A stretch of DNA of 64,000 nucleotides. It comes from Deltaproteobacteria bacterium. Lineage in GTDB: Bacteria; Myxococcota_A; UBA9160; SMWR01. Location of the stretch: positions 1-64,000 of the forward strand of contig JAQBGU010000209.1 in NCBI GenBank assembly GCA_032128375.1. The letters run 5' to 3'. Numbering within the stretch: the first letter of the stretch is position 1; each line of letters opens with the position of its first letter. The notes below the pieces were generated by a model. The model had not been told where the DNA came from and did no database searches. It was given only the letters and a program-made list of their open reading frames with translations. This document shows positions 49,914 to 54,020 of this stretch, one piece after another. The position numbers and the translations under genes were made by a program.

Positions 49914-50515
49914 TCGATTTTCCAACGCTCCGGAAGAGGCTGACCGATGATCTCCAAGAAGCTCTCCAGGAAACGGTAAGTGAGACCCCAGACGACATGC
50001 CGGCCCGGCTCGCCGACCAGAATGCCGGGGAAACGGTTCCGGGTTCCACGCACCACCGGGTGCTCGATATGGAATCGCGAATCCAGAAGCGATTCGACCG
50101 GAAACCAAAAAGTCTGACGAACCTCGTGGTTCGGAACGAGCGGTTGCGGCTCGGTGACGTGAAAAACGAATGCCGAGACAACCAGTTCGCGAGCCGTCCC
50201 CGGCAGGCCTGGCGAATCGTCCAGCTGGCCGAGTAGCTCACTGTCGTCCAGTGAAAGCCCCACTTCCTCGAGCGTCTCGCGTTGTGCCGCGGCCTGGGGG
50301 CTCGCGTCAGTATCATCGACGCGACCTCCCGGGAATGCCATCTGGCCGGACCACGGATCGTCTTGCCGGTTGGCCCGCTCGATGAACAAGACCTGGAGCT
50401 CGCCCAAATGCTCGCAGAGCGCGATCGCCACCGCCGCGCGGCGTTTGGGCGGATCGGAGACGATTTGGGGTCGATACTGCGCCAATGCGCTGCGGATCTT
50501 GTCGATCGGTGCCAT
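49904..50515 (-). CDS. Nudix hydrolase, CoA pyrophosphatase type
   Basis: AAV, DPWSGQMAFPGG, Nudix box AAQRETLEEVG, VWGLT. Confidence 0.92.
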   Translation of the reverse strand: MAPIDKIRSALAQYRPQIVSDPPKRRAAVAIALCEHLGELQVLFIERANRQDDPWSGQMAFPGGRVDDTDASPQAAAQRETLEEVGLSLDDSELLGQLDDSPGLPGTARELVVSAFVFHVTEPQPLVPNHEVRQTFWFPVESLLDSRFHIEHPVVRGTRNRFPGILVGEPGRHVVWGLTYRFLESFLEIIGQPLPERWKIDQE

Positions 50516-50838
50516 GGCTCGAAGATACTCGACCCGGCAGCAGCAGGCCGCGCGCGAGCCCAGAGCCCACATACCTGCCTCTTCAGTTTTGTAGAGAGAG
50601 CCGAAGCCAAGTCGCAAAACCGCATTTCCAGGTCACCGAACGACAGACAATCGGCGGAACTTCCAGTACAACCCAGGCTTCGGAGCAAAAGGTTAGTCAG
50701 CGGCGAAGACGCGGGCTCGCGGACGGGCTGCTAAGGTATGCAGGCGGCGCCCGATTCGCGGACGCGCCGCCCGATTCGCGGACGATGCGATCGACACGCC
50801 TACCGTTGAACACGGATCGGCGAGCGGGGCCGGCAACG

Positions 50839-51999
50839 ATGGCCGATGGCACACTTGGCACCAGTACCAGTGGCATCAGCAAGCGCGTACTCGCAGTGGC
50901 GATCAACGACCGAGCCGGGGCAACTGCGCAGCTCAGCCACTTGGATCTCGACGCGCAGGTCGCGTTGGTCTGCAGCACACCGTTGTCGCGCCGCAGCGAG
51001 ATGCTGGGCTTGCTGCCGCGGCCCGAAGACGTGATCCCGTTGATACCCGAGGCGGAACTCTGCTTCACCGTGAAAGCGATGGGCATCAGCGATGCCGTCT
51101 GGCTGCTCGACTACTCGACCGTCGAACAGGTCGTGGCGTGTGTCGACCTCGACATCTGGAAGGGAACACTACCGGATCGCGATGCGCTCGACTCTTGGTT
51201 GGACGCACTCGCCGAGGGCGACGAAGAACATTTCTTGCGTTCGGTGCTCGGGCTCGATCCCGAGATCGTCGTGATGTACTTGAAGCACCGAGTCCACTGC
51301 ATCCAGAAGCCCGACGACGACGACGATTGGGAAGACCCCGACGGCGGTCTGACGATCGACGGCCAGTTTTATCTGGTCCCGATCCGGGAAGACGACGACA
51401 TCGCTTCGATCATCGTCATGCTGAAGTCGTTGTTCGTCGGGGACTATTGGACGTACTTCCGAATGATGCTCGCGGTCATTCATGAACTCGATTCCGCCAA
51501 CGAAGAATGGGCGCTGCGCTGGCGAACTGGGCGGCTCGAAGACCTGGGCTTCCCCCCCTGGGATCGAGCCATGCGAATCTACAATTTCATTCGGCCACAG
51601 GAGCGCACGCTAATTGACGACGGAACCGACCCGTTCGATGTAAACGCGTGGGACCTTCCGATTTGGCTACCGAGGCTCCCTACGACGCTCGACCACGAGT
51701 ACCTGTTGTTTCGAACTCTGGCGCAACTAGACGAACAGCAGCGCAAGGCTGCGCTGTTCACCTTTTTCGCGCTCGCCAACAAGGTCGCAGTCGCCGACCG
51801 CATGGAGCTGTCGGACGCGGAGTCTACGCCACGCGCGATCGACAAAGCGGCGAGGTTCGCATCGGCGGGCCTGGCGCATATCTGTGAGAGCAGCGGACGT
51901 GATCCGGTCGATGTAATCGGGAAGGTGGTGGTCGAGCGGTTGTTCTCGGTGGGGGCCAATCTGGACCCAGAAGCGTCCAAACCCGGCCCCTTCTTGTAG
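50839..51999 (+). CDS. DUF6178-like conserved protein; start uncertain
   Basis: Acidic helical protein; CVDLDIW, TIDGQF, EEWALRWRTGRLEDLGFP, LANKVAVAD patterns. Confidence 0.7.
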   Translation: MADGTLGTSTSGISKRVLAVAINDRAGATAQLSHLDLDAQVALVCSTPLSRRSEMLGLLPRPEDVIPLIPEAELCFTVKAMGISDAVWLLDYSTVEQVVACVDLDIWKGTLPDRDALDSWLDALAEGDEEHFLRSVLGLDPEIVVMYLKHRVHCIQKPDDDDDWEDPDGGLTIDGQFYLVPIREDDDIASIIVMLKSLFVGDYWTYFRMMLAVIHELDSANEEWALRWRTGRLEDLGFPPWDRAMRIYNFIRPQERTLIDDGTDPFDVNAWDLPIWLPRLPTTLDHEYLLFRTLAQLDEQQRKAALFTFFALANKVAVADRMELSDAESTPRAIDKAARFASAGLAHICESSGRDPVDVIGKVVVERLFSVGANLDPEASKPGPFL

Positions 52000-52046
52000 A
52001 CAGGACATTCTCTGGACCAGCTCTGAGCCAAGAAGCAGACAAGGAA

Positions 52047-52075
52047 AAGGCCCGCCGATCAGATCGGCGAGCCTT
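52047..52075 (-). terminator. Rho-independent terminator of the histone-like gene
   Basis: Minus strand AAGGCTCGCCGATC-T-GATCGGCGGGCCTT followed by TTCCTT, ~45 nt after the stop. Confidence 0.7.
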
Positions 52076-52120
52076 CGGAAGCCTTGCTTCGAGCTTCATT
52101 TACATCCGGATCGTCTGCGA

Positions 52121-52330
52121 TTACAGATCGACGGGCTTCAGGGTCTTGCGCTTGTTGCCGATTGCGCGCGCTTCGGCGGCAGCAATCATGTCGCGAACGA
52201 CCTTGTCCAGTGCGCCGTAGAAGTCGCTACTCACATTGCATTTCTTGGTCGCAGCCTTCGTGCGCGACTTCGAGATGATCAGGTCGCCAGCCTTCTTCGT
52301 TGTTGCTGCCTTCTTTTTCTTTGCTGCCAT
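52121..52330 (-). CDS. Bacterial histone-fold protein (69 aa) with Lys-rich N-terminal tail
   Basis: MAAKKKKAATTKKAG tail, then LIISKSRTK (a1), NVSSD (L1), long a2, NKRKTLKPVDL (L2 RKT and R-D clamp); GGAGG RBS. Confidence 0.85.
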   Translation of the reverse strand: MAAKKKKAATTKKAGDLIISKSRTKAATKKCNVSSDFYGALDKVVRDMIAAAEARAIGNKRKTLKPVDL

Positions 52331-52601
52331 GCGTTCCTCCAATGCACCGGTTCAGTTCTTTGTTCGCTTGCGAGCAAAGCCGGCATTCACCCCCATGACG
52401 TGCCGTACGGCATGGTTTAGGCGCGCAGCATAGGCGTTATCGCGGCCTTCGCAATCAGAAAACAGCCTCCAGAGGCTCTGAAACGCCGTTTTTCGTGACT
52501 TGGCGGATCGAAGGATTCTCCCAACGAGTCGCGCAACGCTGGTATGCTGCGAATTCCTGGAGCGGAACAATGTCCGCTGCCGACGAGGAACCTCCACTTC
52601 C

Positions 52602-54020
52602 ATGGACTCTCAACACGACGATCTTGTGTATCGCCCCCTTCACGAACTGATCGGACTGCTGGCCGCTGGCGATCTGTCGCCGCTCGAATTGATGGAGACG
52701 GTTCTCACCCGCATCGATTCGACGCACGAGAACATCAACGCGTTCGTGGCGTTGCGTGATCGTGACGAGCTGCGCGCGGATGCCGACGCCGCTGGCGAAC
52801 GCATCGCGCGGGGCGAGGGACGGCTTCTGGAAGGCATCCCGCTGGGCGTAAAGGACTTAGAAGACGCGCAGGGCCTCGTCACGTCGATGGGCTCGATCCC
52901 GTACAAGGACAACACCGCTACCGCAGATTCCGTTCAAGTCGCACGACTCCGCGCCGCCGGCGCGATTGTGGTCGGCAAGACCAACGCTCCCGAGTTCGGC
53001 TACACCGCAATCACGAAAAACCTGCTGTTTGGCGCGACCCGCAACCCTTGGGACCTCGATCGCACGCCTGGGGGGTCGAGTGGCGGATCTTCGGCGGCGA
53101 TCTGCGGCGGTGTCATCCCGCTTGCGACTGGCAGCGACGGTGGTGGCTCGGTCCGTCTTCCGGCTTCGTTCACCGGCTGTTTCGGTCTCAAGCCTAGTTA
53201 TGGCCGAATCCCACACGAAACAGTGCAAGCATGGCCGATGAGTGACACAGCCGTGCACGGTCCGATCACGCGCTGCGTAGAAGACGCAGCACTGCATCTC
53301 GATGCGGTAGTGGGGAGCCATCCACTCGATCCCAATTCCCTGCCTCACCCGGGGATTGCGTACCGCGAAATACTGGCCGACTTGCCGACGGGGCTTCGCA
53401 TCGGCTACTCGGCCGACCTGGGCTTTGCCGTCGTACAGGCAGATGTGGCGTCCATTGTGTTCGACGCAGCGCGGAGCTTCGAGGCGATGGGGCACCATTT
53501 CGAAGAGCTGAAGGAAGGGATTCCAGAAATGGGACGCGACTGGGGGATGGTCGGCGCATTCGAACAGTTGGGCCAGCTCGGCCATCTGCTTCCCGATCGC
53601 GAGGACGATTTCGGACGCTCTTTCATTGCCGGCGTGAAGACCGGTACAAAAATGAACGCCGAGACCTGGGGTCAAGTGCGACGCCGTCGCGCAGACCTCA
53701 ACCGCTGGTGCGCTGCGATATTCGACCGCTTCGACCTGCTGCTCACTCCGACAGTACCCTTCGATCCGCCACCTGCACGCGGCCCGTTTCCGAGCCAGAC
53801 CGACGGACGCCCCCAACCGCCGGTTGGCGTCGCGAGTTTTACGATTCCGTTCAATCTTTCGTGGCACCCCGCGGCGACCGTCCGCGCCGGATTCTCGCTG
53901 GCGGGCTTGCCGGTGGGATTGCAGATCGTCGGGCCACGCCACCGAGACGACCTGGTGCTACAGGCCGCGTATGCGTACGAACGCGAAAGGCCATGGGCCG
54001 ACCGCTGGCCGACTCTCTAG
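52602..54020 (+). CDS. Amidase signature family protein
   Basis: GIPLGVKD, GKTNAPEFG, PGGSSGGS, GSDGGGSVRLPA, GLPVGLQ. Confidence 0.95.
   Translation: MDSQHDDLVYRPLHELIGLLAAGDLSPLELMETVLTRIDSTHENINAFVALRDRDELRADADAAGERIARGEGRLLEGIPLGVKDLEDAQGLVTSMGSIPYKDNTATADSVQVARLRAAGAIVVGKTNAPEFGYTAITKNLLFGATRNPWDLDRTPGGSSGGSSAAICGGVIPLATGSDGGGSVRLPASFTGCFGLKPSYGRIPHETVQAWPMSDTAVHGPITRCVEDAALHLDAVVGSHPLDPNSLPHPGIAYREILADLPTGLRIGYSADLGFAVVQADVASIVFDAARSFEAMGHHFEELKEGIPEMGRDWGMVGAFEQLGQLGHLLPDREDDFGRSFIAGVKTGTKMNAETWGQVRRRRADLNRWCAAIFDRFDLLLTPTVPFDPPPARGPFPSQTDGRPQPPVGVASFTIPFNLSWHPAATVRAGFSLAGLPVGLQIVGPRHRDDLVLQAAYAYERERPWADRWPTL

Follow-up and report, generated by a model that had tools for sequence, protein, structure and literature searches.

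A predicted α3-truncated bacterial histone with a conserved basic N-terminal tail in an uncultured class

To our knowledge, the histones of bacteria were recognised only in the years 2023-2025, and just two of them, HBb (Bd0055) from Bdellovibrio bacteriovorus and HLp from Leptospira perolatii, have been studied at the bench. HLp is described as forming stable tetramers that wrap about 60 bp of DNA and reorganise the nucleoid of Escherichia coli (Hu et al., 2025; PMC12701072), and the archaeal histone HTkC from Thermococcus kodakarensis is reported to behave in the same way (preprint 10.64898/2025.12.06.692711). According to the account of its structure, the contacts between the two dimers of HLp involve R49, S52 and N53 on one side and R55, T61 and the C-terminal F63 on the other, with R49, N53 and R55 being conserved in bacterial face-to-face (FtF) histones that are predicted to be tetrameric and with R55 and D62 constituting an Arg-Asp (RD) clamp (PMC12701072). 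In HTkC, R45 is described as being required for tetramers (preprint 10.64898/2025.12.06.692711), whereas bacterial dimer histones are characterized as being without the conserved Arg and Asn of the dimer-dimer interface (PMC11390915). Here we describe a histone gene that is encoded on the minus strand of a 64,000-nucleotide stretch of DNA from a Deltaproteobacteria bacterium (GenBank assembly GCA_032128375.1, contig JAQBGU010000209.1, positions 1 to 64,000 of the forward strand, in the following termed the window). We consider it likely that its product is a nucleoid-associated α3-truncated FtF histone, which would wrap DNA as a ring-shaped tetramer and whose lysine-rich N-terminal tail would add positive charge. 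The gene and the two parts of its product are located as follows:

52121..52330, minus strand: histone gene of 69 codons plus TAA stop (open reading frame and translation)
52124..52285, minus strand: predicted α3-truncated histone fold, codons 16-69, with R55/N59/R61 and the R61-T63-D68 motif (AlphaFold2 model, Foldseek, VIA, conserved columns)
52286..52330, minus strand: Lys-rich N-terminal tail, codons 1-15, with 6 Lys and 2 Thr, free of acidic residues, net charge +6

Of 2227 candidates in sequence searches, 1928 qualify as homologues at E ≤ 1e-3 and, where named, they are annotated as 'histone H3/H4', 'DUF1931 domain-containing protein [Myxococcota bacterium]' or hypothetical. Clustering of the histone family at 50% identity yields 113 representatives. 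A family profile built from 48 members and searched against the PDB finds its best match in HTkC (9F2C, E 4.9e-14, 55.7 bits), followed by HLp (9QT0, E 2e-12, 50.5 bits), HBb/Bd0055 (8CMP and 8FVX, E 1.2e-7 and 3.7e-7, 35.2 and 33.6 bits) and HmvA (E 9.3e-4, 22.7 bits), whereas NF-Y and H2B appear only at E > 0.04, the latter at about 0.15-0.5. The monomer model obtained with AlphaFold2 from a 48-row alignment (mean predicted local distance difference test score, pLDDT, of 80.9) displays a short helix α1 (residues 21-27), a long α2 of 24 residues (35-58) and an α3 that DSSP confines to residues 66-68, with the chain ending at L69. HLp, HTkC and HBb account for all of the top nine structural matches of this model in Foldseek (TMt 0.74-0.85, root mean square deviation (rmsd) 1.6-2.2 Å), and the best of them is HLp (TMt 0.85, rmsd 1.6 Å over 56 columns, 32% identity). 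A comparable result is obtained with VIA-align, where seven entries of the same three proteins reach Z 6.9-7.3 (rmsd 1.1-1.4 Å, 53-56 residues) and all others, including eukaryotic and archaeal nucleosomal histones, stay at Z ≤ 5.3.

The length of α3 is in the range of 3-4 residues that is typical for α3-truncated histones, and loop L2 carries the R-x-T-x4-D motif of the RD clamp in the form of R61, T63 and D68. Conversely, the full-length α3 that distinguishes histones of the eukaryotic and Asgard type is reduced to a single turn, in line with the low Z of the nucleosomal histones and their profile E-values of 0.04 and above. The profile ranking, taken together with the predicted fold and its Foldseek and VIA matches, identifies the protein, at the level of sequence and model, as an α3-truncated histone as defined by Schwab et al. 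(2024). The original prediction, which was made from the letters of the window, had proposed such a prokaryotic histone fold with short α1, long α2, an RKTxxxxD clamp and a truncated α3, and in this respect it is borne out by the model, the profile, the structural matches and the conserved columns of the alignment.

Less fortunate was its choice of Bd0055 as comparator, since HLp and HTkC are both nearer to the family (50.5-55.7 versus 33.6-35.2 bits) and since R55 and N59 occupy positions where HBb contains Ser and Asp. The latter fits the statement that bacterial dimers are devoid of these two residues (PMC11390915), both of which are present and conserved in the family described here. In HMMER alignments, R49, N53, R55, D62 and F63 of HLp pair with R55, N59, R61, D68 and L69 of the window protein, and R45 of HTkC is equally matched by R55. 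The 48-sequence alignment shows no variation at N59, T63 and D68 and a conservation of at least 90% at R55 and R61. A chain end one residue beyond the clamp Asp was found at 56 of 57 loci from other genomes of the class, in a motif search that itself required this arrangement and that did not parse one locus (L057), and the same end is described for HLp (PMC12701072). A terminus directly following the clamp Asp suits, on the sequence level, a contact of the C-terminal carboxylate with the conserved Arg of the opposite dimer. In light of a profile score that is 15-20 bits higher for the FtF histones HTkC and HLp than for HBb, and of the tetramer residues R55 and N59 where HBb has Ser and Asp, we read the protein as a member of the FtF histones rather than of the Bd0055-type dimers and we infer that it forms a tetramer.

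The comparison with the individual proteins illustrates this relationship. HLp (PDB 9QT0-9QT2) is likewise a singlet α3-truncated histone of similar size, with its tetramer residues R49/N53/R55, an RD clamp and an equivalent C-terminus, and its N-terminal residues are also disordered, although this concerns only the first seven, which are unresolved (PMC12701072), compared to a tail of 15 residues with six Lys in the window protein. HLp has been characterized biochemically, whereas the window protein is known from its sequence alone. HTkC, whose tetramer-holding R45 is retained here, is of archaeal origin, is essentially tailless and contains E49 at the position of the invariant N59. Finally, HBb/Bd0055 (8CMP, 8FVX, 9EZZ and 9F0E) shares the α3-truncated monomer fold, the RKTxxxxD motif and a small stand-alone gene but it is a dimer that bends DNA, and it is only about 20% identical to the model.

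The tail of the window protein has the composition that was noted in the original prediction, with about 15 residues including six Lys and two Thr, and it is disordered in the AlphaFold2 model, where residues 1-3 and 5-13 show pLDDT values below 50. Its conservation was surveyed in the orthologous loci of the class, in which starts were chosen by a Shine-Dalgarno (SD)-like run. In this way 56 of the 57 loci were parsed, the exception being L057, and an SD-plus-ATG arrangement was assigned in each of the 56, with the SD-like run being a requirement of the script. A basic tail is found in every one of these loci, although L054 and L056 contain one basic residue only. The segment preceding the fold encompasses 8-27 residues (median 16.5) with 1-11 Lys and Arg (median 7), 0-1 acidic residues and 0-5 Ser or Thr (median 1). 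An MAA[KR] start was assigned to 50 of the 56 loci by the script and to 51 after by-eye correction of a mis-picked internal GTG (L027). Apart from this start, no single Lys position is kept, length and order vary and Lys and Arg interchange, Ser and Thr are missing altogether from 20 of the 56 tails, and the two Thr of the window tail are not conserved. On this comparative evidence, the tail is a real, translated and selected feature, in which charge and disorder are conserved rather than the sequence past MAA[KR]. Its designation as 'eukaryote-style' is thus justified with respect to composition but does not extend to length and order, which are variable, or to the two Thr. The original prediction also held that most characterised prokaryotic histones lack tails, which is in line with their general description as tailless (PMC10627809, PMC12701072), whereas Schwab et al. 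(2024), who also list FtF histones in Myxococcota, report positively charged tails to be common (PMC11390915).

The survey was extended to 80 further loci from named records of metagenome-assembled genomes (MAGs), some of which share genomes with the class set. Of these, 70 were parsed, while seven were unparsed and three were without an SD-like start. A basic tail of 7-19 residues is present in 69 of the 70, with L123 being tailless. More distant cluster representatives range from tailless proteins (P0151, P0190 and P0232) to Lys-rich tails of about 45 residues. Long Lys-rich tails of about 30-47 residues, composed of K/A/T/R repeats, are found in P0139, P0143, P0157, P0163 and P0148, the last of which (160 residues) also carries an acidic C-terminal extension beyond the fold.

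The distribution of the gene was investigated by a profile search in a sample of 300 other genomes of the phylum, 57 of which belong to the window's own class and 243 to other parts. The histone gene was identified in 56 of the 57 (E ≤ 3.2e-24), with 9/9 genomes of the same family, 37/38 of the other families of the order and 10/10 of the remaining family of the class. Outside of the class, 31 of the 243 genomes contain a histone match, which is weaker. The window's genome contains a single copy of the gene, and the nearest named relatives of its uncultured class bear the label Myxococcota. In two sister families, many genomes contain two to three matches, consisting of the conserved orthologue and one or two divergent paralogues (E 1e-8 to 1e-4). 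Proteins that are 70-90% identical are found in MAG records titled Eisenbacteria, Latescibacterota, Krumholzibacteriia, NC10/Methylomirabilota, Planctomycetota and others (L060-L139), and relatives with 56-62% identity in records titled Thorarchaeota or uncultured archaeon. Since these titles are the labels given to MAGs by their submitters, we do not build a claim of transfer or deep conservation on them. If they hold, the histone family would be unusually conserved or mobile across phyla.

In the arrangement that we propose for the window protein, two chains would form a histone handshake dimer and two dimers would close into a flat ring-shaped tetramer via the end of α2, loop L2 and the one-turn α3, with R55, N59 and R61 facing C-terminal residues of the opposite dimer. 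Binding of DNA is predicted from the charge of the protein (net +12, isoelectric point (pI) 10.3) and its conserved contact residues. It would be independent of sequence and involve the basic α1 (K21, R23 and K25) as well as the loops L1 and L2, where T63 of the RKT motif would take part. By homology with HLp, about 60 bp of DNA would be wrapped around each ring. The disordered tail would leave the fold beside α1 on the side facing the DNA and contribute six positive charges per chain and 24 per tetramer. Its role would most likely be electrostatic, by raising affinity, by neutralizing bent DNA or by bridging neighbouring DNA or complexes. The protein may also be abundant, as was supposed in the original prediction. 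A search for RNA sequencing runs for positions 51400-53100 of the window listed none.

A hint concerning the first step comes from a relative of the same order (L054:298-723, minus strand), where the histone gene is tandemly duplicated in 182-nt copies that are 99% identical at the DNA level, located 189 nt apart and fused in frame to encode a doublet of 125 residues (P0233) with the organization tail-fold-linker-fold. This doublet may have arisen naturally and very recently as a pseudodimer, or it may be an artefact of MAG assembly. Its model (pLDDT 90.3, predicted template modelling score 0.82) contains two intertwined histone folds and matches single-chain histone dimers (the M. kandleri doublet 1F1E with E 1.2e-4, viral doublets and H2A-H2B chimeras), and it indirectly supports a competence of the family to form handshake dimers. 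Diverged doublets of about 120 residues are also found (P0153, P0172, P0182, P0192, P0194, P0207, P0208, P0221 and P0187). These comprise two α3-type folds per chain, each of which keeps the pattern R..N.R.T....D, and they are pseudodimeric relatives distinct from classic DUF1931 proteins.

The histone gene is surrounded by the following elements:

52336..52340, minus strand: Shine-Dalgarno sequence GGAGG, 5 nt before the ATG (read from the sequence)
52038..52076, minus strand: intrinsic terminator, a 14-pair hairpin (52076-52046) leading into a U-rich tract (RNA folding)
52427..52454, minus strand: promoter-like pair TTGCGA (52454-52449) and TATGCT (52432-52427), spaced by 16 nt, about 95 nt upstream of the ATG
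52464..52477, minus strand: perfect palindrome AGCCTCTGGAGGCT with a T-run behind it, located directly upstream of the -35-like hexamer and called terminator-like in the scan
50485-51999, plus strand: DUF6178 gene (Pfam E 2.2e-65), oriented convergently to the histone gene

On the minus strand, the gene extends from its ATG (52330-52328) to a last codon at 52126-52124 and the TAA at 52123-52121. The listing of open reading frames contains a longer version of 73 residues with a TTG start at 52342, which we rejected since this codon overlaps with the SD sequence and has no SD of its own and since the four added residues are not conserved in relatives. In folding calculations, the terminator region (94 nt) reaches -42.2 kcal/mol (z = -4.56), a value equalled by none of 200 shuffles. 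The 14-pair hairpin was missed by a consensus terminator scan, in which only a shorter overlapping stem (52056-52038) was picked. With a convergent DUF6178 gene downstream and a divergent amidase gene upstream, the histone gene stands alone and is monocistronic. The original prediction of a stand-alone gene of 69 codons with a GGAGG and a terminator is in full agreement with these features, and its translation is identical to ours.

Upstream of the gene, a CTATG(A/C)T block is kept in nine aligned regions from the same family, with TTG-containing and T-rich stretches upstream of it. A consensus scan for promoters of the σ70 type between 51900 and 52600 returned no sites, with the promoter-like pair listed above being below threshold (8/12). 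The conservation of the block suggests that the pair is a conserved promoter of the housekeeping type. The palindrome AGCCTCTGGAGGCT is located between the divergent amidase and histone genes and partly kept in three of the nine aligned relatives. It may act as operator, insulator hairpin or UP-like element. In other relatives (L004, L061, L063 and L064), about 40 nt upstream of the start are conserved at the DNA level, as a block that is absent from the window. In over-extended gene calls (P0021, P0022, P0055 and P0117), this block translates as '...GNTDETGET', which points to a conserved 5' leader in those relatives.

For the DUF6178 gene, the listed ATG probably lies well upstream of the actual start. 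Among 11 related loci, this gene is found downstream of the histone gene in five and the amidase gene upstream in seven. As neither suggests a link to chromatin and as relatedness alone may explain the synteny, we did not retain them as functional partners.

Several observations weigh against our assignment of the window protein as a tetrameric FtF histone. Used as a single sequence, it matches no histone model in scans of Pfam, where at E ≤ 10 only a chance match to PUF_NOP9 was obtained, or of NCBIfam, and in a phmmer search of the PDB it finds HTkC and HLp only weakly (E 0.068 and 0.58). For a chain this short, none of the Foldseek E-values of the monomer reaches 1e-3, the best being 3.9e-3. 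At the level of the monomer fold, FtF and HBb-type histones cannot be told apart, with Z-scores tied at 6.9-7.3, and the predicted tetramer is based on three conserved residues and on similarity. Two of the tetramer contacts of HLp, S52 and T61, are replaced by G58 and V67, and a two-residue gap in the alignment of α1 and L1 to HLp renders the mapping of DNA contacts in this region approximate. Finally, the window's genome also contains two HU/IHF genes, and the histone therefore need not be the main nucleoid protein. A dimer of the HBb/Bd0055 type, which would bend or coat DNA but not wrap it as a tetramer, also has to be considered, although we regard it as rather unlikely. Such a dimer would be compatible with a monomer fold that is equally near to HBb (Z 7.0-7.3), with the significant profile match of 1.2e-7 and with the RKTxxxxD motif common to both, and bacterial dimers are listed for Myxococcota_A in the survey of 2024 (PMC11390915). 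What speaks against such a dimer is the profile, with its surplus of 15-20 bits for FtF histones, and the presence of R55 and N59, which are at least 90% conserved at positions where HBb has Ser and Asp. Even less probable is a histone-fold protein with no role in chromatin, acting for example as a protein-protein module akin to the DUF1931 pseudodimers, which lack DNA-binding residues. Its appeal stems from the naming of some close homologues as DUF1931 domain-containing proteins and from weak PF09123 matches in 7 of the 48 family members. The window protein is, however, a singlet with neither two folds per chain nor a match to PF09123, it keeps the RKT/D motif and a net charge of +12 at a pI of 10.3, and DNA binding is common to all of its nearest solved relatives, leaving little room for this explanation.

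Other alternatives concern the tail. That translation could start further downstream, with the Lys-rich segment outside of the protein, is conceivable in one sister family, whose fold begins with a Met (...MIISK). In the window, we give this practically no credence, as the next in-frame starts (GTG at codon 33 and ATG at codon 48) are both located inside the fold, as GGAGG precedes the ATG by 5 nt and as MAA[KR] is kept in 50 of 56 loci (51 if corrected), which supports translation of the Lys-rich segment. The proposal in the original prediction that the tail is a platform for regulated modification, with Lys acetylation and Thr phosphorylation as chromatin states, would add to the FtF assignment rather than exclude it. 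It is attractive for a disordered Lys-rich tail that is conserved across the class, and Lys-rich tails of Asgard histones are described as being modified, with writers and erasers active in vitro (preprint 10.64898/2026.07.02.735847). In addition, the genome contains one SIR2 and one HDAC-family gene, but out of 14 control genomes, 10 and 9, respectively, also contain genes of these families, whose presence thus discriminates nothing. We find no writer or eraser adjacent to, or syntenic with, the histone locus, and full-text literature searches gave no report of modified tails in bacterial histones. Ser and Thr are absent from 20 of 56 tails. Since length and order are free and since Lys and Arg interchange, with no Lys position conserved past MAA[KR], a requirement for charge fits better than site-specific marks, and we consider a modification platform doubtful. 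We are equally hesitant about a variant in which the tail, selected for length and charge, would serve as a reversible charge switch, where bulk acetylation of Lys by ordinary GNAT enzymes and its removal by sirtuin or HDAC enzymes would loosen and tighten the DNA wrapped on the tetramer. If true, this switch would constitute an independently evolved bacterial counterpart of histone-tail regulation. The histone gene by itself does not show that chromatin is modifiable in bacteria.

Known proteins with a comparable basic extension differ in their architecture. The tailed nucleosomal histones of Asgard archaea and eukaryotes also carry a disordered Lys-rich extension in front of the histone fold, but they contain a full-length α3, form four-helix bundles and (hyper)nucleosomes, and modifications of their tails are documented. 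Lys/Ala-rich extensions are also found in other bacterial nucleoid proteins, such as mycobacterial MDP1/HupB (PMC5974015). The extension of MDP1/HupB is C-terminal and much longer and it is attached to an HU fold. As a low-complexity, basic and disordered segment on a small DNA-binding fold, it is probably the nearest functional analogue of the histone tail described here.

The family has already been published, as have its occurrence in Myxococcota and the positive charge of its tails (PMC11390915), and the window protein is accordingly an uncharacterised member of a family described in 2024-2025 and not a new kind of chromatin. What is new is its lineage-wide presence as a single-copy gene conserved across an uncultured class, a quantitative description of its tail, the conserved promoter-like block and the fused doublet in one relative. 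Our study adds a well-supported, lineage-wide bacterial histone from an uncultured group, and the natural series of tail lengths in its family, from none to about 45 residues, could be used to probe what basic tails do for a tetrameric histone.

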